Below, piece after piece: positions 34,190 to 61,358 of a DNA stretch of 64,000 bases (position 1 is its first letter; each line of letters starts with the position of its first letter). Source of the stretch: a virus; the IMG/VR virus record IMGVR_UViG_3300026488_000021, positions 1 through 64,000 of that record; one strand, given 5' to 3'. The position numbers and the translations under genes are program-made. The notes beneath the pieces are model-generated. The model was not told the origin of the DNA, ran no database searches, and was given only the letters and a program-made list of their open reading frames with translations.

Positions 34190-34194
34190 TTGTC

Positions 34195-34638
34195 TTAGTT
34201 AGAATTTAAATATCAACCAGTTGAACCAAACCCTCATTGTCTTTCCGTTACATTTTCTTTTTCCCAATTATCATACAAATTCTTATCAACTAATTTAATT
34301 AGTTCACAATCATCTCATATAACTTCCATCTGTGCAATCCTTTCTCATCTCTTAATTTCCACTGGGGTATCTGTAAAGTTATATAACATAGCCTTAGCTT
34401 CGTTTCTATAATCTGCATCTATAATACCAACACTATTTGCAAGCATCAATCCTTTCTTTAAAGGTAGACTACTTCTGACATACAGTTTCCAAGCGAAATC
34501 TGTTTTAATACCAAGTCATACCAATTTAACTTCACCTGGATTAATTACTACGTTCTCAGCAGATTTTAAATCTAAACATAAACTATTAGATGTTCCTTTC
34601 ATAGGTAATAAGTTTTCATCATAACTAATTACTTTCAT
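34195..34638 (-). CDS. dut: Trimeric dUTPase
   Basis: LDL, RSSL, NSVGIIDADYR, GERIAQ and ERQGGFGSTG motifs. Confidence 0.92.
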
Positions 34639-35805
34639 AATCTTTTCTTTTAAAAACTAAATCTTCCCGAATAGGGGAAACAAACTTAACCTCAACAGCG
34701 GACGGTAGATAATTCCACCAATTCTTTGGTTTTTTTCAAAATGTATCAGTAAATTTAGTATATCATGGCATTTTTAAGATAATGTTCCCGTTTCCGTCAT
34801 ACACATATCAAGTATACATATATCTATCTCAATGAGTTCATTTTCATCTTTGTGCTAATTCTTGTATTAGTTTTTTTGTAATTTTGAGTTCCTTTACTCA
34901 TTTTTTCCTCATTAACATACATACATAAGAAGCTAGTCATCACCTTGTTAAATTAGTACCAGCTACCAATTCATTTATTGTTTTGTCTCATATTATATAT
35001 CTATTCCCTGTTGGTCATTTAACCATCTTAATTGTTTTTCATACATTTTGTGCTAATATATCAATTGCTCTTACAAACATTGCTCTGGGTTTAATTTAAA
35101 TATGTAAATACTTTATCAATATTTGGTTCTCTATTATTCGCTTTTGCTGACAATATTTCCAAGAATGCTAATCTCAACAAATCTTCTGGAAGCATTGTCA
35201 TACCTAATATTCCTTTCATAACTCACAATATTTTATCTTTATCTTGATTTCAAAAGTACATATATCAAATAGTAGCTATCATATATTCTATTATTCATTC
35301 TAACACTTTTCCAATATCTTTATTATACCAGCATTGTATAATCATATTTCTATATTTATCCATATCTTGTTCATATTTTTTTAACAATTGTTTTGTATTT
35401 CAATCTTTATTTTTTTCTAAAAACTCAGTTGTTTTATCAAGTAAATCATCCCAATACAAAGTATCAATCACTTCTTTCTTTTTATCAGCATAAATATTAC
35501 CCAATGCTTTTTCTAATTCTTTATTCATTATTTATTTTTAAGGTATAAATATATTTGTCTCTTTGCAAAATAAGTCATCAATAATTTTAATTCATCTAGT
35601 TTTTTAATTTTACGTTTTCAGATTTTACTATACTCCTCATCTAAATTAGTTACTGCTCTATTATATTCTTTTTCAGAATACTTTCTTAATCTTTTTTCTA
35701 AATCCCAAAAAATATCACAATATTTTTTAATAGCTTTACCAAGTAAATGATTAGATATATTTACATTATCTTTAAGAAATCTTTTAAAAGCATTTGCATC
35801 TGCTA

Positions 35806-36492
35806 CTAACATAATCAATTATCTTTAAATCGTAAAGATGTTTCTTTTACATCCGTTCATAAGTATATAGAAACAAAATGGAATGGATTTCAATGCGCCC
35901 TTCATTTAGAAGAAAAGTCAGTAACTATATTTTGCGTAGTATTAGCTCTCCATCAGTCTGTCCATCTTCAATGCTCATATAAGGCATAAGTATCATATCA
36001 AACCTTTTTATATTCTATTCACAATTTATCTAATACAGATAAGATTGGTATTCTTTTTAAATCTTCAATATCAGGTAAATCTATTTTTTCTCACTTAATA
36101 ATCACTGGTTTATATTCTTTTTTTCTAGGGAAGCATTCCTCATAAATATCAGATAACTCAACATAAGGTTCAATCCTTTCAAAATCTACTACATATTTAG
36201 ATGTATTTGCTATAAATAATATGTTTTCTACTTCTTGTAAATCAAGATTATGTTTTTTTCTTATATTCTGTATATTTTCTTCTATCCACTTTTTGATTTC
36301 TTCAACTATTTCTTCCTGTGTTTTTTCTATTAACAAACAGGATAATCAATCTTGTTCGTATATTATATAATCTATTTGCTGTCATCGGTTAGATATTTTG
36401 TCATTATGTCTCTCTACTATTCTTTGTAATACCTTCTTAGGTGCTCTTATTAATTTATATTTCACACAATCTGGTAGCTCTGAAAAATACAT
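35806..36492 (-). CDS. Hypothetical replication protein with primase N-terminal-like C-terminal domain
   Basis: IPILSVLDKLG...TDFSSKGRAHGNPFHFV..YLG.....SL(CGA)FK resembles the DnaG N-terminal helical pattern, without the Cys ligands. Confidence 0.5.
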
Positions 36493-36508
36493 TGCTCTAT
36501 ATTAGTAT

Positions 36509-36958
36509 TTAAAATTCAACCTCTTCAAGTTCTATATCTTCATCTTGGATTTCATCTTTATAAGAGAATTTAAATTTGAAATATATTTCATCATTTTTAT
36601 TTCTCTTTTTCTCAATATTACACCAATATTCATCATTATATTTAAAAGCACAAGACACACCATCTTCCCTAATAAATTTCCAAATTACATATTCTTGTCA
36701 TCATACTTTTATTTTTCATAAAGCTTTTTTATTCTCTTGAAATATCAACTCAGCATCTTTATGTCAGTCTGGTGTAGCCAATTTAAATTTATAAATAATC
36801 TCTTCTCAATAATCTCATTTTCTTCTATCAGTTAGATCATCTTTATCTACTGTGGTAATCTTTACTACTTTTTTATAACCATCTAATGGTTGTCAGTTAA
36901 AATCTTTATCAAATTCTTTTTCCCAAATTTTGTTAAATGTTGTTTTAGTTTCTGTCAT
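36509..36958 (-). CDS. Putative ssDNA-binding protein
   Basis: 149 aa, beta-rich, acidic tail DEIQDEDIELEEVEF; lies in the replication cluster. Confidence 0.4.
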
Positions 36959-37347
36959 AATATTGTTTTATTAAATAAAATATAAATCATTTTATAAATT
37001 TTGTAGCTCTATAATCAACCCATCATCTTGTACTTACAACATCCTCTAATTTTATATGCATATCATCCTTCTTAACTTTATTTTTAAGGTAGTTCCCAAA
37101 TTTAACAAGATTAGTATCTGTAAAATATGGATTCGGAATATATCTATTAGTAAGATGTCTTTTATGTATCTTAATATATAGTTTTCAATTTTCTTTATAA
37201 AATCTAACAGCCAATCAAATTTCTTCGCTTTTTTTTTGAAGCCACTTATTTCTATATTGCAAAGATTTTCAGGTAAGGTTTCCTAATGATTTTATAAACT
37301 CTTTTGGCTCTAATGTAATTAACTCTCTTAAATTCATCTTGTATTAA

Positions 37348-39582
37348 TTAATTTATAAACTCGTACATGAATGCTTGCCAAAGTCTATTTTTGTAATTTG
37401 CTAAGTATCTAAATAAATATTGAACAATCCATTCAGTTCTTTTATCTCTTTCTTTTAATAATCTGCTTATGTTTATAACAATATTTTGGTTTTCACTTGT
37501 ATCATCTTTAACTAATTGTTTAATAGCTTGAATAGCATGATGCTTACTTCCAAGTTCTTCTGGAATATATAAATCGATAGTCACCTCTTCACCAACATCT
37601 CATCTTATATTGATTGACTGTTCCTTTTTATTATACAAGATAGTTTTTACAAAAAACTCTTTTAATTCATCTTTACCCTCAATAATAGCTCTATGTATTT
37701 TTGATGTTTTCTCTATGATAGTTTCAAGTTCTTCCTTAGAGAATACTTTGTAAATATCATTAACAATCCTTAACCAAGCATAGTTATTATCTATTCTAGC
37801 TTCTCAATTATCAATCCAATCTTTATATTTAGATAAGTCAACATCTTTCACTTTATCCCACATATCTGCAAGAACAGATTTTCAATTAAGACTTTTTCTG
37901 ATTTTCTTATAAGTCTCTTTATCTGTATGTAATGATTTATCTAATTGAACATAGATAGATCTATTCATAACAGACATATACTTTGGTGCTTTCTCTCAAC
38001 CAATAACAACAGGAGATAACATATTGTATGTAACAACACTTTGATCTGCTCTACCTTTCTTTGCATCTTTTTCATTATAAACTCATCTTAACATTTCTTC
38101 TATTTCAGATGAGATATTTCAAGTAAACTCATCAAAGAATATTGGCGCATAATCTCATAACTCATTTTGAACTGCAAATGTTCTTGTTCCTTCTAATGTC
38201 ATTGCTCTTGGTTGAATTGTTACATTTCCATCTTTTATTGGCGTAGGTGACAATCCCACAAGTTTCATCATCATTTGTATAGTTTCAGTTTTACCTGATT
38301 CAGTAAATCAGATAACCTGTAAGATTGGTGTTGGTATTCATTGCTGGAATAAATCCTTTTTAAGGAAAGCTCATAAGAACCATAGGAATATAATATAGTG
38401 ATAAGGTTCTCTTAAATATCACTTCATAATTTTCTTTGCTTCTTGTATAGTTATTTGTTCTCAAATAGTAGTAGCATATTTAGGAGCAAATACTTTAAAT
38501 TCTTCATCTGTATCTTTATACAACATCTGTCATCAATGGACAAATATTTTTTTTTCTAGATCAATTCAATTATGTTCTACAATTTTAAACTCAGGTATAT
38601 TATCTTCATCTATCCATTGGTCTAGTGCTGAATAAAACATTTGAAATGTTTTTCAAGTCGTCATCATTCTTATTCATTGTCATCATAATCTTTTATTGAA
38701 ATGGTCTGTATTCTGATAATATGGGAAGATAATATCTCATTCGAAGTAGTAGTATCTTTTCTTAATATCAGTAATCACATTATTTAAGACATCGTAATTA
38801 GACTCATACCATCCTACCAGTTTCAACGGTTTATCAATAATTACACTTTCAACTTCTGCATCTCAATTTGTTTTAATTGAATATACTCCGTCTTTTCTAA
38901 ATTCTATTTTATGTGTATCACTGATATTATACATATAATAGATATCTGTCTCTTCTATACCATCTATTCAGAATTGCTGTAATAACTTATTCAGTTTTGT
39001 AATACTTCATTTAGCAAGTCTATACAAACAATCAAACACATTTCAAGATATATTGTCATCTTTATTTCTTATATCTAAGACAATTCCTAGTTCATTAGAT
39101 ACAAATACTTCTTGATTTTCTATCTCATCAACAAACAATTTCGCACCTACATCCTCTGGTAAAATAAGAGAATTAACTTTCTCTTTAAGTTCTGCTAAAT
39201 CTCAATTTAATTCTAAATCTTTACTTATAAGTTGTAAAGCTTTCGATAATATTGACAAGTCTTTTATAGAAGGTTCTGTATTCTTTATTGTTAAGTCATA
39301 CACTTCTTTCTTCCATTCTCATATTTTAATCTTCCCTCAATTATCAACCTGCCATCATATTAACTTCCACCGATTTGGTTTGATGTTTTTAGTTAACTTC
39401 TGTATCACAGTATCCTTATTAGAAATTATTGCCTTCTTATTTCAGAATTCTCAAACTACATTAAAGATAGGTAGATCTATTGCTTCCTTAGAAATCTTTC
39501 TAAGCAAAATTCCATTATCAATGAAAGCATATTTTGCTTTATCTTTAATAGTAGTTTTTCAATCTTTATCTAAGTATTTCAT
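37348..39582 (-). CDS. Replicative P-loop helicase (DUF927/primase-helicase type)
   Basis: 744 aa; Walker A GFTESGKT, Walker B IFFDEF, LRGVYN...KGRADQ, Arg-finger-like VMNRSI. Confidence 0.75.
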
Positions 39583-40161
39583 AACTTAGCTGTTATTCAA
39601 TAAATCATTCTCTATTTACATCTGTTATAATTCAAACATATTCAGCATCTGTATTTATTTTTTCTCAATTTTTAAGTCAATATACTCTTCATTGTTTGTC
39701 TCTTACTAAAATTACGGATTTTAAGTCACATACAGCAATACCATTCCTAAATGTATGTACTCAATAATTTGTCATTCTGTTCATGTCAAATCCTTTTGCA
39801 GCTTCTGTATATTCTTCTATACTTGCTTTTATTATTTGTGGTTCATTATTTTTTTTATTTTCAAGCTTTTTAATCTTTTCATTCAGACTCTTCAAAGAAA
39901 GTTTCTCTGCCATTGTTTTTTTTGTTACCATATAAATAAGCAACTATTGGACTAAATCATCTTTTACTAATATCTAAAAACAGATCTGTCATCTTATCGT
40001 AAAACTCTATACCTTCTTTCTTTCAATACTTTCTAATACTCTCTTCTAATAAGAATTGTGGTTTACCAGCAAATCTAATTAGGATATTGTTTTCAGAATT
40101 CTTAAAATAAATTCAATTGTCATCAACATATGTTTTAAAATAGATTTTCATCTTGCTCTTG

Positions 40162-41511
40162 TTATATATTAAATAGTTCTTTAATATCTTCCTTCTTTTT
40201 ATATTGATTTTTAATTTCTTCTGCAAGTGATTTTAATTGTATAGATTTTTCTATATCAATCAAGTAATTCTTATATTTTTTTATTTCTATGTCTCACCAC
40301 ATTTCTTTATAAGCTTTCATTCTTTCTCTTACTTGCGAGTATAAATTCCCATCCTGGAAATCATAATATTCTGGATTCTCTGAACCTCTTAGTATTCTTC
40401 CAATAGCTTGTTTTACTTGTGCCTTAAATTTTACGAACATAAAGTAAAAAGCTGTATCTAATGGAGGATGATCAAATCAAGTTCCTACTGACTGATAAGT
40501 TGCAACCATTACTCATTTTTTTTCTGTCAATTCTTTTAATATTTCTTCTCTTTTCTTTTTACTAACTTTTCAAGTATAAGCAGCAGCAGAGATTCAAAGT
40601 TTATTTAATGCAACTGCTATTCACTCAGCTATATCAGTTCTATCTACAAATATTATTCACATATTTCTGTCTCATCTTTTCATTACATCTTCAACTAAGA
40701 ATAAGAAGTGAGCTAATCTTTCTGTATCCCAATACATTGTATCGACCAAGTCCTGCCAGTCAACAGCATTATAAGATTTACTAAACTTATAATAATAAAC
40801 CTCAGGATTTTTAGGTCGTATTCAACTGTCGATATATACATTATTAAACATTTTAAATAATGCTTCTGAGGGAAAATTATTTAACTCTGGGGTTCAAGTA
40901 AATCAATATACTTTGTCATACTTATATTGACAGAAGAAATGTATTCTGTTTCTTGTGGTAAACTGCATATGTATCTCATCTATTAGTACTTGTTTGTAAA
41001 TACTATCTAGTGATAACTTCTCCCAATACATATCAAAGGATCTTGAAACAATAATAAGAACCTTAGGAGGATTAGTTCTACTAAACTTATCCTTATTAAA
41101 TATTTCTACTTCAATTCACAATCATTTAAACTTCTCGTATAATCATTTTGCAATCTCTGTCTTCGGTGCAATAACTAAGGTATGTCAAGAATATACCTTA
41201 GCTATCGCAGCCATCATATAACTTTTCCCTGACCCCACACCTGATAAAAGAAGTCAATAATTATATTTCAATAATTTCTCAACTGCTTCTTTTTGTTTAG
41301 GTCTAAGAAAATCTGGTAGTTGTATACTATCTTTAGTTTCTTTTTCTATCCCAAATGTCCTTGGTAAAATATATGTATTGCTTCATCTTTTTTTTTCAAA
41401 AAGTTTAAGCTGTTTAGGTCGCGCTTCATTAAATGGATTTTGCTCTTTAAATATTAGCTCTTTTGGTAACTCAAAACTTAAAACTTTATCTCAGATTCTG
41501 TAATATTTCAT
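40162..41511 (-). CDS. SF2 DExH helicase (UvsW-like)
   Basis: LRPKQKEA, GVGSGKS, IDEIH, GFTGTP, GFDHP, QAIGRILR. Confidence 0.9.
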
Positions 41512-42224
41512 TCCTCTACATTAAGTTTAAATAATGGACATTTCTCTTTTAATTCACAGAAATGACACATTCTATTTTGTTTAGGTTCATAATCATCAAA
41601 GTCTTGTGAGTTTTGATATTCTATAACTACTTTTTTAATTTTCTTTAAACAGTCTTCTTTTGTAAATTCTCTTTCAAACTCCTTTAAACTTGCACTACTT
41701 TTCTTTTCGAGAACTACATATCTAAACTTAGCTTTATTAAATCAAAAGTATTCCATAGCCAAATATGAGTATACTGTTGATTGTAAACTTTCATTCCAAA
41801 TATCATCTCATTCATACCAATTCTTATTATTAGATGTTTTCCAGTCTATGATTAAGAGTTCTTGACTTTGTCAAGAATCTCTTATAGCAACCAAATCTGC
41901 TGTTCAAGTAATCCATGTATTCTCTATTTTTTTTACAAATGGAATTTCTGTATAGACAAAGTTATAGACATTGTCTATTTGTTGTCTATATTGAATAACT
42001 TTATCTGCAAGCTTGTCTATTATTTTTTTAGTTTTCAAGTCTGGATTTATTTCTTTCGAATACCAGTCTATCATCTCTTTCTTACTTTCTGGATGTCTAC
42101 TTACAAAGTGAATTAAATCTCATAAAGCACTCACTTCTATTGGTATATTTACTTCTCAATATTTAAACTTATATGGACAAGTATTATAGATAGACAAGCT
42201 TGTAGTTCTTATTTGATTAGTCAT
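41478..42224 (-). CDS. PD-(D/E)xK exonuclease, Cas4/RecB-like
   Basis: CPYK...GDLIH...GTADL...IDWKT...Q..VY...C.FC..K..C (four-Cys cluster). Confidence 0.85.
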
Positions 42225-42795
42225 TACAATTATTAAATTTATAAATCTCATTTCAATACACATCTCGTCCTTTAGGTTTACATCTTGCAAATACCTCTAT
42301 CTTCTTTAAATTAGGATACATAATATCTAAGTTCTCTCTAACCTTATCAGGCTTTCTACTATGTTCTCTTATAGGCTCTGCTATGATTTGATTTATCATA
42401 GGTTTAGCAGGTTTAAATCTTCATCCATTCTTTCACTTAATTCATATTAATACTAGTTCCACATTACTAGCTGTATAATATCAGGGATTAATCCTATAAC
42501 TTCAATCTTTATTTATTTTTACCCATGTAAAAGCTACAGTTTTATAAACAAATCACCAATACTTCATAAGTTCAATAGCAAAATCAAGTCTAGGACATGT
42601 AGCCCACATAAACATTATACAGTCTTTATTTGCCAGACTACTTATAACATTCTTAAAGTTTAGTAGTTCTTCATCTCTCATAAGAGGATAGTGTTTCATA
42701 GCTCATCCTCAAAACTTTATTTTATTTTTTCTTTCTCATCAAGTTTTCCTAGAATTATACCACCAAGGTGGATCAATATAAATCAAGTCATACAT
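42217..42795 (-). CDS. MT-A70 family N6-adenine methyltransferase
   Basis: YDLIYIDPPW, HYPLM, FMWAT, FTWVK, EHSRKP, EVFAR..KG(CGA)DVYGNE. Confidence 0.92.
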
Positions 42796-43103
42796 TATTT
42801 AATCTCTTTTACTTGTAAATAAGCTGTCTCTTTTTCTTCTAAATATTCTTCTGCTCATTCTTTAACTAATGCTTTTGTATCGATTACAATTTTAACAGCA
42901 TCTGGATATTTTCTCTTTACTTCTAATTCATCTATATCTGGTTTTAATTTATAAGAAAGTCTTACTACTTTCTTTACAATAAAATTGTCGACCTTTTCTT
43001 CTTCAATTCCTTCTTGAAGAAGCTCAGCTTCAAGTTGTTTTATTTCTTCTTGAAGCTGTTTCAATTGTTGTTTTTTTTCTACTAATAATTTTAGTTTATT
43101 CAT
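42795..43103 (-). CDS. Hypothetical coiled-coil protein
   Basis: Track ORF extended through TGA to TAA. Confidence 0.55.
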
Positions 43104-43105
43104 AT

Positions 43106-43771
43106 CTATTTTTTATCAGATAAAGCTTTTCTCCATTCGTCTGCAATCTTCTTTAGTTCTTCTGTATTTACTTTTCATTTTTCTATTAACTGTTTTAGAT
43201 TATTTTCTTTAGCCCATTGTTGTCTCACTATCTCAAACTCTTCAACTGTCTTAGGATTCTTAGTTGCAATATATTCTGCAAAGTCTGCTACATAATCTTT
43301 ATCTGTATTATCAACAATTTTCTCAGCTTTCTTCTCAACTTCTTCAAATGTTTTTTCAATAGCTTCTTCCTCTTGTGGGAATTCGAAGATCTTAGCTACA
43401 TATTTTAATGCATCTTTAAATGCTCTAGCCCTCAATCTTGATATCCCACCATACAATCCGTCACTAAGTAATGTTTTACTAGTAAGATTCAAAGCACCTA
43501 ATCCTTCAAACACTCTTCAATCTTTTAATGTAATAACACAAGTTTGTAGCAAAGCCACAGCTGAATTAGAACTAGCCAATTTTTCGACTGGTTTAAATTC
43601 AACTCTTTCTAGGATATCTAACTGTCTTGCTATATCTCTAATAAATTTTACATCAACATATTCTTGTCATTTAAAATCCTTCTTTAGAATATCAGTTGGT
43701 AGATATTCATTTATTGAATACTCTTTTCCTTCAATAATTACCTTAGTTGTAGTAGCTTTTTTTGTAGCCAT
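43106..43771 (-). CDS. Putative ssDNA-annealing recombinase (Rad52/Sak-like)
   Basis: GQEYVDV...CVITL.DG...EG.G...ARAFKDALK; close to the exonuclease gene. Confidence 0.55.
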
Positions 43772-43779
43772 TATTATTT

Positions 43780-46700
43780 AGTTTAAGATTTAAAATATTT
43801 TTCATAAGCTTTTTTAGGAATTTTGTTCCCATATTTTTTCTTGTAATAATAATACATCTGATCTCAGATGTACTTAATAGCCTTGTGTTTAGGTGGTAGT
43901 TCTACTAAATTATCTTCTATAAGATAATCTTTAATATCAAGTCAAAGTTCTTCTACCATTTTTTTAATCCTCTTAAACACTTTGTCTGTAAAATACTTAA
44001 CTCTTTTATCTTTAAGAACCTGATAAGACAATCAGTACTTTCAATAAACCTCACCTAATGTCTTACCAAGTTCAATTACTTTCTTTTTTACATCTTTTGT
44101 AAGTGTATCTGTATCAACCTTTGTAAGCATTCTTATTCTTATTATTTACAATTTAAATAGTATCATTTATTAAATCTTTTATAATTATTTTTAACCAGGT
44201 TATATCTTCTCTTAAACAATCATCATATTCTAGTTCATTCAATTTTAATATATCTAGAACATTTACTTCTTTACTATTCAAAAGACTTAATAATTTTTCT
44301 GGACAGTTAAATTTGTCTTTATCCCGCTCTATAATTTGCTCTACATTAACCCTCATTTTAATTTAGTTATTAGATAAAAAAGTTTCCCAACTCTTTCATA
44401 AAAACTCTTTTCTCTTTTTGAGATATATTTCATAATCTTTTTTATTACTAACCTCATACATTACAACATCATTCGCAAAGATGTTATAATATCTGTTCCA
44501 ATCTCATCTAACTTTTATCATTTTTGCATCTACTTCTACTAAGTGTTGATAGTTTATCATCTCGATTTTACTTTATAATATAAATATTTTCACATATAAA
44601 TAAAGGATTTTACAGCTGAACTAAACAATGTTTTTAAAGCTGTAAAGAACTTGTCTTGCTCTTGTATCCATTTTTTTTGATAATCTTTTCTTAAAGTGTA
44701 ATCTATAAATGTCATTTTAATAATTATTAGGAATTAAATTCTTTCAATCTCAATACTTACCTTTGGTATTTCATCCTTCTCAATTGGAAGTTCCTTTTCT
44801 ATGAACTGATAAATTTTCTCGTTCAAATCATCTATGAACTGGTCTCTTATTTCTCTTAGTGTATAAGTGTTGTCATCAGGTCATTTATATACACCATCAG
44901 GCAACATATCATCATCAGTATACTGACTTTGGAACCAATCCCAGTATTCATATAAGGCTTTTTGTAATCTTAATTCTGGTGTCATTTTTATTTTATAAAG
45001 AAATAAATAAAAGGTCAAACCAACATACAAATAAGTCAAACTACACTTATTAATTGTCCTTGCTTAAATATCATATCGTCCTCATATCATATCCCAATTT
45101 TCATCAATAAATCTCCAATAAATACACAGATTAGAAATCCAATTTCCATTAATATTATTTGTAGCATTTTTATTTAGTTATAGAATAAATACTTCTAAGT
45201 AGGAACCAATATTCCTTTTCTCAGTATAAACTTATGTATTCTTGTTTTAATTTTTCGTCTTCAGGATTTTGTTGTATTCTTTCTTTTAAATCTAACCTAG
45301 CTACGAATCTAGCTAGGTCCTCTGACAAACCTAATTCTTTTGCTCTTTCATATGTCATTTTAATTACTTTGAAAATCTAAAAGTATCTATATATCTTATT
45401 TTAACTTTAATCAGAAACCAGTTTTATGTAGCATCCTGTGTGTGTATCATTATTTATATGTAAAATATAATTTCATTTACTCTCTAATATTTTCTTTACA
45501 TCTTCTTTTTTTAATTTCCTTACTTCTTTAAGTAAAAAAGGTTCAAGCTCTCTAAGTTCTCATTTATATTTTATTTTAACTTTTTTAGAGAACTCCTTTC
45601 ATAGAATATATGAGTTATACAATTTTTTTAGTAACTCACATATAAAATTATAATTATATTCATAGTAAATGTAATTTATTCTTATTTTCTTAATTTTAGT
45701 ATTAGGATTAAGTAGTCTAGATATAGTATGTAAATCTCAATCTTCGTTAATTAAATAAAAATCCGTTAGAGCAATTATACTATAATCCTTGTCATCTATA
45801 AGTAATGCCTGATCAAAGAAACATCAAAATTCATTAAATGCAGTTATATATTTTCCTATATCCATTTTTCAAATTTATTATGTTGTAAAAGTACTTTTAT
45901 CTCTTCTCATGTTAAATATTTCTTTATTTTCTTTTCTAATTTATTTTTTAATTTTTTAAAGATATTTATTTTCATATCTAAAAAAGAAATCTCAGTAACA
46001 CTAGATATTATTTGAGAAGTTCATTCAAAGTCAACACCACTTAACCCTACACTTAAATCTAAAATAAATAATCTTTTTGTGTTTATTCTATCCAATTCTT
46101 GTATTAATTCATCATATTTATGTCTATATGTATCAACGTATGCTAAGAATATTTTAGCATATGTTTCTATTTCTCCTATATCTCGATCAACTTCATAAGT
46201 GGGTATATTTAATTTATATTCAGTTTCTTTAGGACTAACTAGCTTTAAACATCATTTATTTAAAGATAATCAACTACTTGAATAGTATCAATTATCCTCT
46301 TTAATTTTGTATGTTACAAAGTTTTCTTTTCTAAATAAAATATGTTTTTTACTACATATTCCTTGATAAGAATATCAATATTTTGTAAGTTCATAATCTA
46401 TATAATCATTATATTTATCTAATAGTTTAATTACGTCTGGAATTATATCCGTTTTTTTAATATAATAGTCTAATTTAAATATTAACTTCATATTACTCAT
46501 TTTTTATTCTTTTAAATCAAATAAAATTCCCCAATCTTTTTTACATTCTACCAAACATCTCTCTGCATCTGACTTATACATAAACATTATTCCATCAATA
46601 GTCATAGCTGTTTCTAGGATGATCTCTAATTCATTAGTATCCTTATAATAGGCTACCCTATATCATCAATGATAAGTTCAATCTTCATCCCTATTAAGTC

Positions 46701-49700
46701 ATAATAGAGCTTTATTCTTCCAAATCCATCTTTTAATTCTTGCTAATGCTTTCCTTTTTCTTAATTCTTTTTCTGCTTCCTCTTCTGTTAAAAAAACATT
46801 TCACATTTCTAATCTTCTTTCGAATCCGCTTCATAACAATCAATCAACATCAATTATCTCTCATCTATCATTAATATAAAAGTATGCCCCACGATTTTTT
46901 AATTCATAGATACTTTTGGGTGTCTCCTCCACCTCTTCTAACCATCAATTATATTCTAGTTCTGTAATCATCCTTTCTAATATTCATAATAAATGCTCAT
47001 CAACAGTTTGAAAGGATGGAGTTGTGTTATCACTACATTCCTCAAAATATACATCTCAATCTTCATATACTATTATGTCTCAAGCTTTTGCTCCAGGCAA
47101 GTCCTTTAATAATTTAAATTTTTTCATTTGTTTATTTAATTAAGTTATAAAATTATTATTTTCTTATCTAGGATTTCATATTAAATGGTCAAGTAATAAT
47201 TATTTTTTCATCATCAAAGATTAATACTTCTCATTTTATGTATTCTGTTGGATTAAATTCATCGTCTAATCGTTGTCAAGTAGATGGTTGTTTATATAGT
47301 GTTAACAAGAATTGTCAATCAATATTATATACTTTATATCTTTCAAGGTTAGCATCTTCTAGCAATGCATCGAAGACTCCTTGTGATATAAATTCATTAT
47401 CCATTTTTTTTAACTGTTTAATAATGTATACTTTCTTTATTAAGTCAAATTTAAAATAGTCAAGTAATTCAAGTAATGTTCCTTTGTGTAACATTAGTTT
47501 ATTTTGTTAAAAAATTAAACACATAATTGAAGTGTCTCCATCAGTTCGGACAATGATATCTATACATTCCCGAACTAGCTTCTTCAGTACAATATCTACT
47601 CAAAGATGGTCTTCAGTTTAAGCTGTAGAAAAATCTAGCTCAACCTTTCCATCTCCAGGTATACCAGTATTTGGTATACCTTGACAACCAATCGTCTAGA
47701 TTTTCTGATAGGTTTTTGAAACCGTATACTTTAACTCACATACATTGACCTTTCCAACAGTGCTTGAATCCTCAACTTTCAGCCATAGCTATTCAAGCAG
47801 TAACTATAATACAATTTTCTACACTTCAAGTTATTATCCACTTCTTGCATTTATTGATAACGAGTGAAGATTCATAATCACTAAATCAAAGCTGCCTCAT
47901 TCAGTTGTATAATTCAACTGCTCTTTCTCACCAGCAGTATCACCATACAACTTTTTTACATCCAAGCGGTTCGTAGTTGTATGCTTTAGTTTGAACCGCT
48001 CAGATAATGATTAATACAATTCCGCTAGCTACTAGTAGTGTAGCTAGCCAGGTTAGGTTCTTACTCATGTTGTTTTTGTTTATTTTTTAAAAGCTTAAAG
48101 ATATTATTCATTTTTCTATTTTTTGTTTTGCTTCTTCAATTTTTTTTATAGAGTATCATTCATCTTGCAATTTCTTTACAATACAATCCCAATCTCCTCA
48201 ACATTCTTTCTCTGCTGTAAGATACTCTGCTAGACTTACCTGATAATAATCATCCTTTTTTAAATATATAGTTAAAAAGATAAATAACAAATCACTTCAA
48301 TAATTTATTCTTATTTCTTTATTATTCCAACTACACTTAGATAAAGCTAACTTCATGTTGTTTTCCACGTCATTGTTAGCTCTCATAGCTAATTTTTTAA
48401 TACAATTCTTTTTATTTAAACCTTGTAAATCTTTAGTATACCATAACATTGTTGCGTGATACATATCAACTAATAGATATTCCTTGTATTCTTTTTTAGG
48501 AATATATTTTCAGTCCATAACTATCTTTATTCATTTTTTATTTACATAATCTGTAATATAATCTAGAATTATTTCTGCAGCTTTTTCGTTTATATTATAC
48601 ATTTTTTTTATTTTTAATTTTAAAATTCTTCTATTAACTTAAACAAATCTATTAACTTTATCCTTCATGTTTTTGTTTCTATATAAACCCTTAATCAAGG
48701 GTATCTGTGCACATCCTCACTATATTCTCAATCTAGTTTATCCATCAGTGCTACAAATCTATCTTCCATCTTAAAGACATCTGTACTTGAATATACATCA
48801 TCTGAGAAAATAAAGCTTCAGTCTGCTTCAATTATCATTTCTCTTTTACCAGTATCATAACGTTTTAGTTTTACTTCGTATTCTACTTCCTTTTGTAACT
48901 CTTCCTTAGTGTATTTTTTTGTAAATAGTCAAGGAATAATATAACTTTCTCAATCTTTACTTTTTTGAGGAATTATAGATTTATCTACAAATGCTAAAGT
49001 CATATTTATTTATTTAGAATGTAAAATATTTTTAATAGCTATCTTAAGATAGCTTATCTCACAAGTAGCAGGGGTCATATCGTATACTCTTTTTAAATAT
49101 TTTACTACTTGTGGCAGGATACCTTTTTCTTTACAAAAGGTATATAATTCTTGTTTAGTCATCTGTCTAGTAAATTAAAAATTAAAAAGATTTTCTAGTT
49201 TTAACCAACTGTTGAAGGATATCTCTTAAAACATGTTCTTCAACGGTTGTTATAGTCCATCACTTTTCTTTTAGTTTTTCTTGTAGTTTTGTTATTAAGT
49301 TTAAATCTTGAGCTGTTTTTAACATTTCATTATAGTTTTTATTTTCTAACATTTTTTTCTTTTTAATAAGTAAAAATATCTTCAGGTCGTTTATATTCTC
49401 AATCAGGTTCTGCTCATTCTACTAAATCTATATAATCGTCTTCATCTTTAAATTTTACTTTAAGTATACCCCGTTTAATAAATGCATCTTCTATATCGTC
49501 TATAGTTTTTCAGTATTCTTCTAATTTCTCAAGTATTCTTTCTCAATCAAAATCTACATAACATTTATATTCAGCTGATATACCTTCAGCTTTGCTTGAT
49601 TGTATTTCTTTCAACATTTCTTTTATATTCATTTTTTTTATTTAATTAAATTATAAAATTCTTTAAAACAATTATATTTTCTACTAAATTTCACTTCTTC

Positions 49701-50960
49701 ACAACCTATGATTTCCAATAATCTTTTACAGTTTTCGATGTTTCTTCATTGATTAAGAAGCTCAAATTTAAACTCATCTATTAACTTAACACATCAATTT
49801 TTAGCTTCATACACGTCAATTTGATAAACTCAACAATTCACAATTCTATCTAATAACTCAACATCTCTACTTTCAAACTTATCAAATACAAGTACTACTC
49901 CTAGATGATATTCTACATCATATGTTTTATTGTTTTTACTTTTAACTCACCATCATTTTTTATCCGAATAAGTGATGGTTATTTCATCGTCTTCAAGTTT
50001 TATTTTCTTTTTATTTGTTATAATTGCTATGTCTTCTAATTCAGGACTTATTGGTTTGTCTTCCGACCAAATAGCAACAAGTCCAGCTTCTTTCAACTCT
50101 TTTTTAAATCCTTCTGACTGGTTTTTAAGTAAAAAAAACTTTTGATTTATTTTTTTATAAGTAATTATTTTCATTTTTATTTTTAAATTTAAGAATTAAA
50201 AACACCAGCACTTGCTGTATCTAGTAGTAGCTGGTCTTCAAGGATTTTTAGCAGGTCTTGTCTTAGACCTGCTTTTTTTGCTACTTTAACGGCTTCTTTT
50301 AACTCTTCTACTGTTCAATACAAACAAATGTTTTCTATTGCTTGGTTCACCAACCAAGCATCTTTACTTGTAAGATTTTCAATTTGCTTCTTAATATTCA
50401 TTTTTTTATTTTAAGAAATAAATATTATAGTTTATAAACTAAATTTATAGTTTAAATTATGAAGTTCTTTATCAGCATATTCATCAATTACATTATATAT
50501 ACCATCCTCTATTGCCCATCTCGGAGTTCACCCAGTAAATTTTATATCTACATAAGGAACTGTATACTCCTTATCTTCATCTTCGTTTTCTACTTTTTCT
50601 GCTATATAACTAATAAGTTTATTCAATGTTTTAGTATAATCAATTTTTCAATCTATTGTGTATCCTTTTAGATTTACCTTTTCTTCTTCATTAATCTGTT
50701 CTATGATTTCTTCTAATACATTCTCTCTTGCAATCTGAAATATTCTTTCTAAAACATCCATCCTTAAATCATTAAGATAGATATATACACTTTTTATCAT
50801 TACTTTTTTTAATTAAGAAATAAAAACTGGTACTATCTATTTATATAGTACCAAAAGCCGTGCTTCTTGCAATAAGTCAGAAGCCGGCTCCTTCACTCTT
50901 TATCTAAGCCATATTTTAATAGGGCTTTAATAAGCCTCTTAATCCTTCTAAGTTGTTTCA
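43780..50960 (-). other. Dense cluster of short, co-oriented early genes, mostly hypothetical
   Basis: Roughly 20 short minus-strand frames with AT-rich leaders, e.g. 44153-44356, ATG at 47128 (MKKFKLLKDLPGAKAG), 49003 and 50174; no families recognised apart from 47499-48068. Confidence 0.7.
47499..48068 (-). CDS. Membrane-anchored lysozyme-like protein
   Basis: N-terminal TM/signal (WLATLLVASGIVLIIIGA); IAMAESGG...CMGVK...F....D.W...Y..Y resembles the muramidase/GH73-like catalytic Glu region; Cys-rich. Confidence 0.5.
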
Positions 50961-51036
50961 TTTTTTTTATTTATAAAATATAAAAAACCTGGAATCTCTA
51001 AATTAAAGAAATTAATCTACGTAGAACTTAGCTTCT

Positions 51037-51339
51037 CTAACTTCCCGCTCGTCTGCAAGGCACGCACATACCTGCTTTTCGAGCTGCTAAGTCCTGGGCT
51101 TCTTCATAATTAGAAGCCCGAATTAAATCGTTCAGTTGTAGCACACCTTGGTGATAAGCTACAACATGATATGGACGCAAGATTTCTGCGTCCATAAACT
51201 TTTTAGCAAATTCAACAGCTTCCTCATAGCTGTTGAATTCTTTTTCAAAGTCAGCAACCCTTCCTGATGGGTTGTTATTATCCTCAAAGTAAGGGTCGTA
51301 AGTATAGACCCTTACTTTATATTTTTTAAATTCTTTCAT
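51037..51339 (-). CDS. First gene of the early arm, hypothetical
   Basis: Track ORF of 100 aa with a repeated F/A.S.YEEA motif; contains three CGA/CGG codons. Confidence 0.65.
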   Translation of the reverse strand: MKEFKKYKVRVYTYDPYFEDNNNPSGRVADFEKEFNSYEEAVEFAKKFMDAEILRPYHVVAYHQGVLQLNDLIRASNYEEAQDLAARKAGMCVPCRRAGS

Positions 51340-51360
51340 TTTTTTATTTTTAAAGAATAA

Positions 51361-51950
51361 AATATAAAAACACGATAAGTCGTGCTTTTATATTTGCGGT
51401 CGACTATATTTTTTTCTGGAGCCTCGACCGCAAGGCTCAACAGGAGTCTTTTTTGTTTAACCGGTGTTTCCCCTCACCGGTAAAACCACCCGTGTAAATA
51501 TATTTAATCCAAGAGGCGAGCCAGGCGGTGCTTTGAACTCGCCCCTTGTTGAATTTAGTTTTTATCCTATCTCGAGCTATAACCAGTAGGCAACTACTCC
51601 TACTGGAAACGCTCGACCACTCGCCCCGTCGGTCCGTTGCTCGTCCACACCAACCAAGCGTAAGCTACGCTACACGCCCAGCCGGTGCTTCATCCAAGCT
51701 GTCCCCCGCTTCGGGGCGGTGGATGCGGAGCCGGAGCCCCGCTAATGTTAAATATCTACCCTTTTAACTGATAAGCAAGGGGTAGGACCAGCCGTCCTTG
51801 CTTACCAGCCCAGCCCAGGAATTGAAACCTATAGGCTGGTAGCAGGTTTTAGCCCCTGCTAGGGCTTTATAAGTATTACGGCTTAATACCGTAACACTAT
51901 CAAGGAACTTCGTTTTAGCCCCTCCGTCGGGGTATCCGTTCCCTGATGCT
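51361..51950 (-). ncRNA. Putative large structured ncRNA or 5' leader (~590 nt) with serial pseudoknots
   Basis: GC-rich island composed almost entirely of stems; the stem mismatches examined become G-U pairs on the minus strand; promoter upstream and U-rich hairpin at the 3' end. Confidence 0.72.
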
Positions 51951-51956
51951 GTTAGT

Positions 51957-52005
51957 AGTATAATCATTTTTTTAAAATTTTCAAGACTTTTTTAAAAAAA
52001 TGATT
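51957..52005 (-). promoter_or_regulatory. Promoter TTGAAA-16-TATACT with a 16-bp perfect inverted repeat flanking its -35 box
   Basis: -35 at 51984-51979, -10 at 51962-51957; AATCATTTTTTTAAAA (51962-51977) / TTTTAAAAAAATGATT (51990-52005). Confidence 0.65.
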
Positions 52006-52256
52006 TAGATTGTATAGAAGGAGTTTTAATAAAAGCCTTATTGAAGCTGGTTTTTAGGTGTTATACAATGTAAAAAAAATAAAAATTAAATTATAGGTAT
52101 GTAAAAAAAATAATGAAATATGTTTCATAATGCGTAAAATTTTGAAATTATAAATTTTTATAGGTATAAAAAAAAAAAATAAAATTTTACATTGTATAGT
52201 GGTTTAAACCCTAGTATATATGGGGTTTCTCAAAGATGGGGTCTATACAATCTAAA
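52004..52256. repeat. Two inverted copies of a composite 72-bp site flanking a 109-bp AT-rich spacer
   Basis: TTTAGATTGTATAGA-N13-AAA(G/C)CC-N11-GG(T/G)TTT-N7-TATACAATGTAAAA at 52004-52075 and inverted at 52185-52256. Confidence 0.85.
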
Positions 52257-52885
52257 CGTTTTTGTGTAAAAGAGAATTGAAAGATTTAAAAGGTTATTAT
52301 AGAGACACTAGATGTATAATAAGTAATTAGACATACTTAAAATAAAAAAGTAAGATAAAAAAGGATTGAAAAAGTTAAAAAGAGAGTTTGAATTTTTTTG
52401 ATTTTTTAAAAAATTTTTCTTCATCTATTAGTTTAGTTTACATAAAATATAATTTATGTAAAGTAGACCGGGGGGGTGCGGGGGGGGTGGCGCGCACCGC
52501 ACAGGACGCGTGTAAAGCAGACCGCAGGTTAAACCTAGAATGTAGGGCTAAGGTCTGAAAAGTATAGGAAGAAACTTTGTGAAATTGAAAATCTCGCAAG
52601 TTTGATGTGCTGTAAGGTGTATCTATCGTCAGCAACCAAAAAACTTTAAAATTTGAAAAAATCGTAATGAAAGTATGCGGGGTTTCGGCGTCAATTTTAC
52701 CCTAAAATTTTGTAGGGCTAGCTTGTCTACCCCAAGCCTTACCCAACCGTTGTGTCGCTGCGCCGCTTCTTTGTTGTCTTCATTGTTTTCTTTCCGCTTG
52801 TTTGTCCGCTAATAATACAGCTTTCCTCTTCTTTCTTCGGGGGCGCCCCTCCCCAAGGTACTTCTTTTTTGTAGGGCTTATCCAA

Positions 52886-52948
52886 TTCCCTCCTAAAAAC
52901 CTTCCGATTAAACAACCTTCCCTCCCAAACCTCCGATTAAACAACCTT
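52886..52948 (+). repeat. Imperfect ~30-nt tandem duplication
   Basis: TCCGATTAAACAACCTT at 52903 and 52932, each preceded by TTCCCTCC. Confidence 0.8.
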
Positions 52949-53185
52949 AAACCTACTAATTAAGGATTTAAACCTCTAACTTAAAACCTAAACTTACACT
53001 TACTAATTTAAATAAACTTACTAACATTACTAACTTAATCATTTTAGTATATAAACAATTTTAACTAAATACTAACAAACTCAATTTAATAAAATAAGTA
53101 AAAATACTAAGAATATTATTTTAATCAGAATATTCTTTTACTAAGAATAGTAAAACTCAAATTATACTAAAAAGCTAAGATAATC

Positions 53186-53213
53186 TTGAAACTAAACTGA
53201 ATATAATTATAAT
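53186..53213 (+). promoter_or_regulatory. sigma70-like promoter TTGAAA-16-TATAAT for module 2
   Basis: Near-consensus hexamers upstream of ATG 53248. Confidence 0.6.
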
Positions 53214-53247
53214 GTTAGTATATTTATAATTTAAGTAAATTACTAAA

Positions 53248-53797: not shown

Positions 53798-56700
53798 ATG
53801 TTAGCATTAAAACTACACGATTTAAAAAACTGAGTAATTTACCATCCACATCCTTTAAAGAACCCGTTAGCTTGGGACAAGGAGGATTTTGTATTTTATG
53901 ATAAGAGAGTTGATAAATTACTAAAATGGAAGTTAAGATATCTTTATAATAATTGAAATCCTAAGATTGTAAAGAAAGAAATAGAAATATTAAATACTAC
54001 GTATACATTGGAAGAGTTAGAAGTTCCTAAAAACATTCCTGAAGATATAAAAGTTATTTTACAAGAGTTTGAAGACACAAAAAAAGAGTATATAGCAGAT
54101 GCTGTTAAAAAAAAACTATATGGAGATTTAGAATATACAATAGCGGTTGAACTTCTTATTAGTGAGAAAAAATGAATTAAATTAGAAAATGTTGATAAAA
54201 ATAATTTGGAATATTTGTTTTCGCTACCGTTTAAAACTTTTTATAAGCAAGCTAAAAGATTGATTGATAGATGAGAAATTACTAATACAGATTTAGATAA
54301 TATTGTTATTAAAAAAACATCTAAATATTATTATAATCCTAAACTACCAGTCCCTTATATACCACTATTAGCAAGAGAACATGTTTACACACCAGATTGA
54401 AATCCTTGGAATCCGAAACTTGGTCAGATATATTATTTGTATCATGAAGTTGAAAATACGGTTAACTTATTATTATCAAAAAGACAATATGGTAAAGGAG
54501 GGTATGTATCATTAAAATGATTTCAATATAGAATGGCTGATTGAACATTTAAAAAGGCTAAGGATATAAAAGTCTGAGATAAGTTATTAGCTTCTGATAA
54601 AAGGTGATATACTAACGTAGTTGGCATATCTCTCACAAAAGAACCTGTTTATAAAATTACTCTTTCTAACTGAGCTTATTATTATGCTACTACAGAACAT
54701 CAACATGTAACTGCTGAGAATTATAAAAATTGAAAGTTTGTTTGACCTTATAAAAATACAGTTGAACTTCAAAAATGAGACTTTATACCTTATATGCATA
54801 ATATAGAGATTAAGTGAAAACATGAGAATATTTATAAAATGAAATTATTGTGATATTGGTTGTGAGATTGAACAGTTGCTAGTGATAGTTATGTAAACAC
54901 AATGTCTTTAGAAATTAGTTGCTGAACTAATCAAGCTTATATAGATAAGCTTATTCAATATGCTAAATATTTGTGATTAAAAGCAAGAGTGGAGTTAGAT
55001 ACTAGAAAACAAAATCATTGTGTACATATATACTGATTTGATAATATGAAAGATATTTATAAAAATAAAAGTTGAACTAAATATATTCCTAATTTTGTGT
55101 TTGGATTAGATAAAGAATGAAAGCGAGCTGTGATAGAATGATTATTATGAAGTGATTGATATATACAGATAAAACACAACTGAGTTGTTACAATAGAGTA
55201 CTGTAGTAAATCTGAAGAACTTATTAGAGGATTGCAAATATTGTTAGCAGATGTTTGAGTGTTGTCAAATATTAAAAGCAGATTTATGAAAACGAATTTT
55301 AATAAACATAAATGATGAGATACCTATTGGTATTTGTATATTACAGATAGACAAAGTGTTTTAGATATATTTGAACACACAAATCTTGATCACAAGCTTA
55401 ATTATGAAGATGCTTATAATATTATTACAACAAACACTAAATTATCCAATTCTAAACATTCTATAATTCCTATGATTGCAAAAGAAGAACAGAAACAAGT
55501 AATATCGTGGGAAGAAAAAGTTAGATTAGGAATTAGAAATATTCAGTATAATTTCCAAAGACGGAAAGCTCCTTACTACTGATTAGAACACTGGTTAAAA
55601 TATCATTGGGTTAGAGTAGAAAGTATTGAAAAGATAGGAGAGGAAGAAGTTATACATATACAAGTGGATTGAGATAATTTGTTATGGACAGGATGAGTTT
55701 TAACACATAATTCACTTCTTACTACCTTAATTGCATTTCAGCATTTAATGATGGATTGAGAGAATTCTATACTATATTTGGTTGAGGCTGAAAATAAAAT
55801 ACTTCCAATCATGCAATATTTTGAAAGAGGTTTAAAGAAATATAAGCAGGCTTGAATTTTTTCTATGTCAAAAAATGATTATACTATAACTTGTAAAATA
55901 ACTGGTAATGTATTAAAGTTTATGTCAGCATGAAGTAGGACTGGTGTTAAAGGATATTCTTTTAAAAAGGTAATAATTGATGAAGCTGATTACATAAGTG
56001 ACGATGTATTCTTTTCTTTAATTCCAATATTTAATAAACCTGGTGGTAAATTTTATGCGGTATCAACAGTAGCGTTTGATGTTAAATGAGGTTCAACTTG
56101 GTTTTATGATTTGGCTAAAGATATAGAACTAGGATTAAATAAAATGATTTGAGACATTCCATCACAAGCACTAACAATCACTCTGTATGAAGATGAGTGA
56201 GTTACAAAGCAACAATTACAGATGTTTGAGATAATCCGTAAAAGAGATCCAGATCGTTTTTTGTGAGATTACATGTGTATTAGGTGAGATCAAGATACAT
56301 TGTGGGATAAAAATAAATTGATTAGCCCTATTAGTTCAGATGAATATAAAAAGAAGAATGTAATAAATGTCTTAATTTCTCTGGATCCAGCTAAAAAATA
56401 TGACTATGGTGGATTGGTTGTTAGTTATATTATTGAAGAAGACTGAAAAAATTATATAGTTCCAGTAGTAGCTGATGAGTTAGAAAAGATGGAATATTAT
56501 CAACAAATAGAGATTGTTAAAAAATATGTAGATTTGGCTTTAATAAATCAATTCCCAGTTAATGTTATTATAGACGAAACTGGTGTTTGAGCTGCTGTAT
56601 CAGAAATGTTAAAGCAACAAATACCAAATGCACACTTAATTAAATTGATGTATACCGCAGGGAATAATATTACAGAAAAAAATGGAGCTATTTATGTTCC

Positions 56701-57004
56701 TAAGAAAGAATTAGTTGATACATTATCAACACTTGCATCAGAATGAGAGGTTAAAATTCCGTATGATTTAAAGAATTTGATAGAACAGCTTGATACTTAT
56801 AGGTATGTAAATGGGAAATACGAAGCTATTACTTGACATGATGATGTGATAGAAAGTTTTTTGAATACAACATTTATTTATAATTATAAACTAAAAAAAC
56901 ACTTGAAATTATTTTGAACATCTGTAAACTGACAAACAGATGATATCATAACAATACCTCCGCCTAGTCAAACTAGACAAAGATTAAGAAAGTTTCTTTA
57001 TTAA
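53798..57004 (+). CDS. terL: Terminase large subunit (module 2), intein-containing, long N-terminal extension
   Basis: Walker A KRQYGK|...|S split by the intein, Walker B VIIDEA, AVST motif, nuclease SLDPAKKYD, IDETGVG, GHDD; 1068 aa precursor. Confidence 0.88.
54497..55711 (+). mobile_element. Intein with LAGLIDADG homing endonuclease (~405 aa) in the TerL Walker A motif
   Basis: MADG.FKKAKDIKVGDKL (block A), ATTEH (block B), LLGYWLGDG and IEGLLGSDG (LAGLIDADG), VLTHN|S C-terminal junction. Confidence 0.88.
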
Positions 57005-60029: not shown

Positions 60030-61358
60030 ATGGCTAACTTATTGACAAAACTACAAGATAAACAAGGTATTGGTTTGTATTCACAATTGATTGCAAAACA
60101 AAGAAGTCCGTTTATGTCTGATATACTATTTGGACAAGATATTAACGATCCGTCTTCTACATTGTCTTTTAAAGGGATTTTATTACAAAAGACAACAACA
60201 AAAGACGGTAAATCAGTAGAATGGAGATTGATTTCAGCTAATGAGGATTATTCTACTCTTGCTGCAAATGCTGCTGCTGGTGCTACATCTATTGATGTAG
60301 TTGATGCTACTCCATTCTCAATTGGTGATGATATTGAAGTTGGAACAGGTACTGCAAATGCAGAAAGAAAATATGTTACTGCTATTACTGGTAATACATT
60401 AACATTGGATTCTGCATTAGCTAATGATCATTCTGCTGGTGATCAAGTATTGTCTATAACACACGCAAAAGGTGTTGGTGAAGTAGCAGATAAAGGACAA
60501 GGTGTATGGACAGATGATACAGAATCAAACTTCTTCCAAACATTTGATGCTGTACTGGAAGTAACAAAGGATGAATTAAATGCTCATATTATGGCTGGTT
60601 CTGGTGCTTTTAATATTTCTATGAAACAAGCACTAAGTCAAAAACAAATTGATGCTGGTATTGATAATTATTTAAAATTGGAATTTATTAGAGTATTTGG
60701 TTATGATATTCTTAGAAGTGTAGAAAATGCATTCTGGAGTGGTAGAAAAGCTGAAATAAATGTTGGTGGTAAATTAAGAAGATTTACTGGTGGTTTTGAA
60801 GAATATAAAACAACTGATGAAACAATTGATGCTTCTACTTTGACAGATAAGGAATTGTTTGATAAAATTGTTTCTCACATTTATGATGTAGAAAACTTAG
60901 CATCATCAATTAATGCTAACGAAGTTGTAGTTGTATGCAATAATGCGTTCTTCAAAAAATTCTTGACATTACAACCATCTGGTATTGCATTACCTGAAAA
61001 ACCAACAAAAGATGGTTATAGATTAACAGAAATTATGTTAGGAAACAAAACATATCAAGTATATTACTCTCCTGCTTTGGATAAATTAACAGCTAATAAT
61101 CCAACAGTTGGTAGATTGTATGTATTCCCAAAAGATACAATTGCTGCTAAAACAAGAGAATATACAGATGTAGATGCTAAACAATTGAAGGCTGTTAAGG
61201 GTGGTCCAGATATTAAAGTTACATATGATCCAACTGCTCAAGCTGCTGGTGATGTATGGAGATTCTACTTTATGTATGAAGTTGCATTCATCTTTGGTGC
61301 ATATACACCAAATAAGGCATTGGATGTTTATAGAAAAATTACAGTTACAAATATCTAA
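60030..61358 (+). CDS. Major capsid protein (module 2), DUF5309/SU10-like with inserted beta domain
   Basis: 442 aa; VEW, SNFFQTF, VENAFWSG, RFTGG; follows the scaffold gene and has its own terminator. Confidence 0.85.
   Translation: MANLLTKLQDKQGIGLYSQLIAKQRSPFMSDILFGQDINDPSSTLSFKGILLQKTTTKDGKSVEWRLISANEDYSTLAANAAAGATSIDVVDATPFSIGDDIEVGTGTANAERKYVTAITGNTLTLDSALANDHSAGDQVLSITHAKGVGEVADKGQGVWTDDTESNFFQTFDAVLEVTKDELNAHIMAGSGAFNISMKQALSQKQIDAGIDNYLKLEFIRVFGYDILRSVENAFWSGRKAEINVGGKLRRFTGGFEEYKTTDETIDASTLTDKELFDKIVSHIYDVENLASSINANEVVVVCNNAFFKKFLTLQPSGIALPEKPTKDGYRLTEIMLGNKTYQVYYSPALDKLTANNPTVGRLYVFPKDTIAAKTREYTDVDAKQLKAVKGGPDIKVTYDPTAQAAGDVWRFYFMYEVAFIFGAYTPNKALDVYRKITVTNI

Follow-up and report, generated by a model that had tools for sequence, protein, structure and literature searches.

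The GC-rich stretch at the head of the leftward early/replication block of a hydrothermal vent phage specifies a previously unclassified large structured phage RNA, which is a new candidate at the family level. The preliminary description of this DNA had proposed that a large structured non-coding RNA, as yet uncharacterised, is encoded on the minus strand at the head of that block, and our analysis supports the proposal. The window analysed here comprises bases 1–64000 of an IMG/VR virus record that is 82 kb long and derives from the metagenome of a hydrothermal vent. Read with table 11, it contains only 7 stop-to-stop open frames of at least 150 codons, compared with 54 such frames spanning 53.7 kb when TGA is read as sense. 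TGA codons are abundant in the glycine-rich ORFs of the window, and the phage therefore uses code 25 (TGA = glycine). Its host is presumably a bacterium with TGA as glycine, belonging to the candidate phyla radiation and of the Gracilibacteria/Absconditabacteria type. The genome GC content is 27%, and the ~595-nt stretch, with ~50–55% GC, is by far its richest GC island.

Two further observations concern the genes of this phage. In-frame TGA is absent from 60030–61358, a 442-codon gene after the portal and scaffold genes that is likely the major capsid gene, and from 51037–51339, with 18–57 such codons in the neighbours; genes that are highly expressed or expressed first may avoid the recoded codon. 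An intein that contains a LAGLIDADG homing-endonuclease domain splits the large terminase (53798–57004); the long form also occurs in the related phage L002 (1062 aa), and the related phage L006 has an intein-free terminase of 636 aa.

The transcription unit and its surroundings

A strong predicted promoter and a predicted terminator bracket a minus-strand RNA of ~595 nt, from 51950 to ~51352; the start, the end and the efficiency of the terminator are all sequence predictions, and no RNA sequencing run was found to carry the sequence. A promoter just upstream and a U-rich hairpin at the end had been described before, and the program scan recovered both (Table 1), with the predicted transcription start near 51950. 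The pattern CTTGAAA-N15-19-TATAMT occurs at only two sites in the 64-kb window, namely the promoter of the RNA and a second site, oriented the opposite way, that serves the terminase operon. Scanning and inspection revealed no promoter in the interval from the terminator to the 100-aa gene, and therefore the downstream genes must be read through the RNA. The 100-aa gene has no family match, and the proteins neighbouring the RNA matched no toxin or defence families.

Table 1. Predicted elements of the minus-strand RNA in 5′ to 3′ order, followed by features of the surrounding locus
Feature	Position	Strand	Description	Basis
Sigma-70-like promoter	51957–51985	minus	CTTGAAA-N16-TATACT	program scan, 10/12 matches
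5′ hairpin	51899–51947	minus	10-bp outer stem, inner CCCC/GGGG hairpin, then CUAAAAC	MFE
Hairpin	51872–51898	minus	11 bp, AUUAA loop	MFE, centroid
PK4	51840–51866	minus	compact H-type; GCCC/GGGC crossed with UAGCAG(G)/(C)CUGCUA, loop UAAAA	
Hairpin	51810–51839	minus	7 bp + 3 bp, UUUCAAUU loop	MFE
PK3 stem	51756–51809	minus	13–14-bp hairpin, 15-nt loop	MFE, pairing check
Hairpin	51725–51742	minus	7 bp, UCCG tetraloop	MFE, centroid
Central multi-helix domain	51617–51722	minus	includes 16-bp G-U-rich arm	MFE, strand-specific stability
Hairpin	51572–51616	minus	6 + 2 + 8 bp	MFE, pairing check
PK2	51485–51548	minus	11–12-bp stem 51548–51537/51521–51510; loop 51529–51522 pairs with 51492–51485 (8 bp)	
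Hairpin	51460–51481	minus	7 bp, ACCGGUG/CACCGGU	MFE, pairing check
PK1	51395–51438	minus	GAGCC/GGCUC (5 bp) crossed with perfect 9-bp helix UGCGGUCGA/UCGACCGCA	
Intrinsic terminator	51352–51395	minus	16-bp stem (core GCACGA-CUUA-UCGUGU) and U-rich tail	program scan
First protein gene downstream of the RNA	51037–51339	minus	100 aa	
Leftward gene block	31857–51339	minus	includes MT-A70 methylase, PD-(D/E)XK nuclease and helicase	
Divergent gene-free region	51340–53247		1.9 kb; leftmost 600 nt are the structured stretch	
Packaging block after the divergent region		plus	TerS-like gene, intein-bearing TerL, portal	
tRNA-Asp	31752–31827		sole tRNA of the window, 19.5 kb from the RNA	

The stretch holds no credible ORF and is non-coding. 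Under code 25, the longest ORFs within it are 67 and 79 aa, of which the 67-aa frame begins upstream of the predicted transcription start. The exact ORFs of the region are absent from a collection of 15 billion proteins, and phmmer found no homologs of the 79-aa frame. A translated search against 1.84 billion representatives returned one match, to 36 residues of a 2,144-aa protein in which ten stretches were matched; we read it as spurious.

Searches for known RNA families were negative throughout. The preliminary description had suggested a covariance scan against Rfam as its check. With Rfam 15 there was no match at the gathering threshold in the whole window, and with relaxed filters no family matched at E ≤ 10 in the 2.1-kb and 621-nt segments. 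ARAGORN found no tmRNA or tRNA at the RNA, and blastn in distant mode gave no match in 50,697 phage records and 72,556 plasmids. Exact-pattern scans for the RNA returned zero hits in viral, genome and metagenome contig collections, and a look-up of its sequence words recovered this genome alone. Possible antisense targets in the rest of the window were limited to AT-rich 10–14-mers, with no extended complementarity.

The remainder of the divergent region carries several features of its own. Immediately upstream of the RNA promoter lies an AT-rich block (52004–52256) with perfect inverted repeats (52062–52075/52185–52198) and the repeated motif TATACAAT(G/C)TAAA, which looks like an operator or an origin. 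Further upstream, runs of G7 and G8 occur within GACCGGGGGGGTGCGGGGGGGGTGGCGCGC at 52457–52530, flanked by the direct repeat TGTAAAG(T/C)AGACCG (54 nt apart) and showing no excess RNA folding; this may be a DNA-level site, a packaging signal or a G-quadruplex. The motif GCCCTACA occurs three times on the minus strand (52541–52548, 52711–52718 and 52870–52877; 0.33 expected) and also upstream of leftward genes in relatives (four times in L006 and once in L002), and could serve as a phage-specific promoter or bind a protein. A C-rich segment at 52880–52950, with a direct repeat of CCGATTAAACAACCTT, lies upstream of the terminase promoter.

Fold of the RNA and compensatory changes

The stretch folds far more stably than expected by chance, and more so as the minus-strand transcript. 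The minus strand of 51340–51990 reaches −264.8 kcal/mol (z −10.4 vs shuffles) and the plus strand −216.8 kcal/mol (z −7.7). When the GC-rich core alone was shuffled, the z-scores were −9.25 for minus and −5.11 for plus, and the central domain (51606–51745) is stable on the minus strand only (z −4.1 vs +0.13 for plus). The MFE structure of the minus strand contains 23 G–U pairs, compared with 11 for the plus strand. As a control, the neighbouring GC-rich segment 52430–53000 gave a z of about 0 on both strands. The RNA comprises about a dozen helical elements, and its 5′ and 3′ ends are unpaired with each other in the MFE structure. Every helix of the preliminary description was recovered where it had been placed, and its observation that A–C mismatches on the plus strand become G–U pairs on the minus strand holds for the PK2 stem, the PK3 stem and one mismatch of the terminator stem.

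The RNA has at least one, and probably three, H-type pseudoknots. Tertiary helices were tested by loop shuffling. PK1 is above chance (p = 0.0025), as is PK4 (p = 0.0055), and PK2 reaches p = 0.018 if only the near flank is used, compared with 0.21 for a 60-nt flank. The candidate pairing of the PK3 loop with GGGUAG at 51756–51761 is not above chance (p = 0.38). Of the serial H-type pseudoknots proposed at the outset, PK1 thus stands, PK2 and PK4 are plausible, and PK3 is no more than a candidate.

A natural variant, X2, carries substitutions that bear on these helices. X2 is a variant of the phage found in Logan contigs of an independent 2025 metagenome run. It is 98% identical over 51595–51762 (3 differences in 168 nt), where conservation is highest among the pieces listed for the 6-kb region, and 89% identical over 51339–51591, and 145 nt of the adjacent protein gene fail to align at 80%. 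The RNA in X2 is conserved at least as well as the flanking coding DNA. The substitutions analysed are 18 of 28, lie between 51377 and 51534, and represent one variant and the 3′ third of the RNA only. Among these 18, both partners are replaced in five modelled pairs, and pairing persists in four of them; with 18 positions placed at random, five double hits arose in 2 of 200,000 trials (P about 1e-5). In the long helix of PK1, the pairs 51398/51429 and 51400/51427 swap Watson–Crick pairs, and 51399/51428 becomes a G–U that pairs on the minus strand only. In the loop–flank helix of PK2, 51485/51529 changes from U–A to C–G, and the change at 51488 turns G–U into G–C. A change at 51386 in the terminator yields G–U on the minus strand and A–C on the plus strand; of the changes or mismatches, three pair on the minus strand only. 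The double change at 51396/51431, together with a lone substitution at 51432, removes the outermost two pairs from the 9-bp helix of PK1. The first loop, of one nucleotide, thereby becomes longer, which makes steric sense for an H-type knot. The double substitutions that still pair support PK1 and the PK2 loop–flank helix, and this support is real but narrow. The preliminary description had set a conserved ORF against a conserved fold; the X2 substitutions fall in compensating pairs instead.

Related phages without the RNA

On the available sequence comparisons, the RNA is an accessory insert specific to its lineage, placed between a promoter and a gene that are both conserved, because relatives keep the promoter or the downstream gene and lack the RNA. 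The related vent phages L002–L007 were recovered by portal-protein alignment. Portal or capsid searched singly found no related loci, and the portal alignment found nothing in genome contigs. The closest portal relatives (P0003–P0008) are 61–75% identical and come from ENA/Logan contigs; the portal is 61–65% identical in L002 and L003 and 57% in L006. The promoter is kept at 93% identity in L002 and 81% in L003 over 27–29 nt. In both phages, a small ORF follows within ~35 nt and the GC-rich island is absent. These small ORFs were considered as homologs of the 100-aa gene and rejected (E 0.9). L006 carries an ortholog of the 100-aa gene at 6214–6480 (56% identity, E 3e-30), preceded by operator-like repeats and a short leader, with the RNA absent. 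The alignment of the 100-aa gene had no match in viral contigs, and G001 (the L007 phage) gave no match.

L006 also has features that stand apart from this question. About 10 copies of the palindromic TTTGTATACAAA lie over 280 nt (6720–7000) upstream of the 100-aa gene ortholog, an array that resembles iterons or operators. A 520-nt GC-rich structured island occurs at 4350–4870 on the minus strand (−259.8 kcal/mol, z −11.9; plus strand −222.3 kcal/mol); an AT-rich terminator hairpin divides it. A tRNA-like domain (z −5.4) makes up the final 135 nt. It has a 7-bp acceptor stem and a canonical T arm (CCGGG-UUCGAAU-CCCGG), and two long hairpins stand where the D and anticodon arms would be. ARAGORN and Rfam do not recognise this domain, and an exact-pattern scan of viral contigs for the tRNA-like end returned zero hits. 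The similarity between the RNA of the window and this island is not significant. The island was rejected as an occupant of the RNA's slot, since it lies ~1.3 kb further into the leftward block than the 100-aa ortholog.

Possible roles and likeness to known RNAs

The RNA may be a trans-acting accessory product in its own right, i.e., a scaffold, a decoy or a self-assembling particle, a reading that we hold with moderate confidence. Host RNA polymerase would transcribe it first on the leftward arm, ahead of the early/replication genes, and most transcripts would stop at the terminator, so that the folded ~595-nt RNA would accumulate as a discrete species, with PK1 stacking on the terminator hairpin to cap its 3′ end. 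That it would be made first after entry, as proposed earlier, follows from the promoter and the gene content only by inference. Transcripts that pass the terminator would supply the downstream genes, and the RNA would act in trans rather than being needed in cis by the operon. The trans-acting role is favoured because relatives have the same promoter or downstream gene and no RNA. The same relatives count against a cis-acting leader, which would work by attenuation, by put/EAR-like antitermination or by shielding the polycistronic mRNA from 5′ decay: the promoter of L002 and L003 runs straight into a gene, and the L006 ortholog of the downstream gene does without the RNA. A length of 595 nt and ~12 helices are also far above the needs of known antiterminator RNAs, and inspection of the sequence and folds found no upstream segment complementary to the terminator core, i.e., no alternative antiterminator pairing. 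A leader is therefore rather unlikely in our judgement. It stays alive because no promoter separates the terminator from the first gene, leaving promoter, structured RNA, terminator and first gene in uninterrupted order. PK1 moreover adjoins the terminator stem, and its A-rich third loop (15 nt) is 92% complementary over 13 nt to the U-tail region.

The remaining explanations are less probable still. Decoys against host immunity, with hairpin-plus-tag units mimicking CRISPR repeats in the manner of an RNA anti-CRISPR or a solitary repeat unit, or with pseudoknots mimicking antitoxin RNA, would suit an RNA that is predicted to be transcribed first. Two copies of the motif AGGGGCUAAAAC are present, one in the 51899–51947 hairpin and one in PK4, and two units consist of a CCCC/GGGG hairpin followed by CUAAAAC, 66 nt apart. 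The segment 51945–51912 aligns end to end with Rfam CRISPR-DR10, at a sub-threshold 14.5 bits vs a cut-off of 39 and an E-value of 0.74 even in a 131-nt search, and the two units are alike only over ~12 nt plus a stem. ToxI-type antitoxins are tandem ~36-nt repeats beside a toxN-like endoribonuclease gene; no tandem repeats were found inside 51352–51950, nor a toxN-like gene nearby, so the type III ToxI analogy drawn earlier is not supported. Even with the type III-A and V-A systems reported from Gracilibacteria (PMC10746230) counted in its favour, an immunity decoy of this kind is improbable. We consider a replication primer, a G-cluster-rich RNA held in a persistent R-loop beside the AT-rich symmetric site, to be very improbable. 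ColE1 RNA II and T4 origin transcripts are R-loop primers, and RNA II is similar in length to the RNA of the window, whose transcript contains seven GGGG runs and more G than C; the symmetric block lies just upstream, and the cumulative GC-skew minimum falls at the RNA. However, the GC skew follows gene orientation and is hence uninformative, the compensatory changes indicate a folded RNA and not a hybrid, and absence from close relatives would be odd for an origin component. The chance is slighter again that the RNA is a very divergent ROOL, GOLLD, tmRNA, RNase P RNA or group I or II intron. Its size and pseudoknot richness are ROOL-like and its serial pseudoknots tmRNA-like, but the negative Rfam and ARAGORN searches, together with the lack of an acceptor/T-arm closure, a tag ORF or an interrupted host gene, largely refute this explanation. 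Equally slight is the chance of a DNA-level element (for packaging, recombination or binding) or of GC-rich filler with incidental hairpins. The stretch does lie in the 1.9-kb divergent region beside the terminase operon, which holds repeats and G-runs, but its folding is strand-asymmetric with G–U in place of A–C, its compensatory changes include one that works only as a minus-strand G–U, and the adjacent GC-rich DNA folds no better than chance.

Beyond the trans-acting accessory RNA that we prefer, a bolder version is put forward only tentatively, and we think it unlikely: the RNA could represent a new class of large, pseudoknot-rich, immediate-early RNAs of CPR phages, a factor made of RNA only that serves host takeover or counter-defence and is present as an optional cassette. 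Such an RNA would sequester a host nuclease or Cas protein via its repeat-like hairpin-plus-tag units, or self-assemble like ROOL and GOLLD, and it would parallel, as an RNA, the protein inhibitors that phages express first, such as T7 Ocr. The predicted first-transcribed position and the patchy presence in relatives fit accessory host-takeover or anti-defence cargo, a category that would, if this is confirmed, extend to large RNAs. A second stand-alone promoter–RNA–terminator unit of the same phage was counted as a precedent for the cassette reading. It lies at 31135–31345 on the minus strand (RNA 31316–31135), ~430 nt from tRNA-Asp, with a CTTGAAA-type promoter, a ~180-nt GC-rich fold (z −4.4 on minus vs −2.6 on plus), a strong terminator (ACCUUGCC...GGCAAGG and U7) and no Rfam match at gathering. 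Large intricate RNAs without a protein partner are rare, and ROOL, GOLLD, OLE and raiA form RNA-only assemblies; we found no structured RNAs described from the code-25 host group (Gracilibacteria/Absconditabacteria type). The new candidate is well delimited, with a predicted start, stop and strand and partial covariation, and its ~595 nt suit in vitro transcription, chemical probing and cryo-EM.

The RNA shares individual traits with several known systems. The put RNA of phage HK022 and the EAR RNA of Bacillus are cis-acting processive antiterminators of ~65–120 nt; the RNA of the window resembles them as a promoter-proximal folded RNA upstream of a terminator, and differs in its length of ~595 nt and in being dispensable in relatives. 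Like tmRNA, it is GC-rich within an AT-rich genome and strings H-type pseudoknots together; unlike tmRNA, it lacks a tRNA-like end-joining domain and a tag reading frame, and neither ARAGORN nor Rfam gives a hit. Like GOLLD (RF01998), it is a large, ornate, phage-borne RNA, but it does not match the GOLLD model with its conserved 3′ domain, has no adjacent or embedded tRNA, and is shorter than typical GOLLD RNAs, which exceed 800 nt. ROOL and GOLLD are RNA-only homo-oligomeric nanocages, and ROOL usually lies beside tRNA islands in phages and prophages. The preliminary description had placed the RNA in the size range of the ROOL/GOLLD type, whose covariance models went unmatched. The likeness to ROOL (RF03087), a phage and prophage RNA of ~580–660 nt with multiple pseudoknots and no known protein partner (bioRxiv 10.1101/2024.12.08.627333), consists in the ~595 nt, the ~12 helices and the supported PK1, PK2 and PK4. 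The differences are the lack of a covariance-model match even at E ≤ 10, a position directly behind an early promoter and ahead of protein genes rather than at a tRNA island, with the sole tRNA 19.5 kb away, and the host range, as its carrier is a hydrothermal vent phage that reads TGA as Gly. The RNA is thus an orphan of the ROOL/GOLLD kind and a member of neither family.
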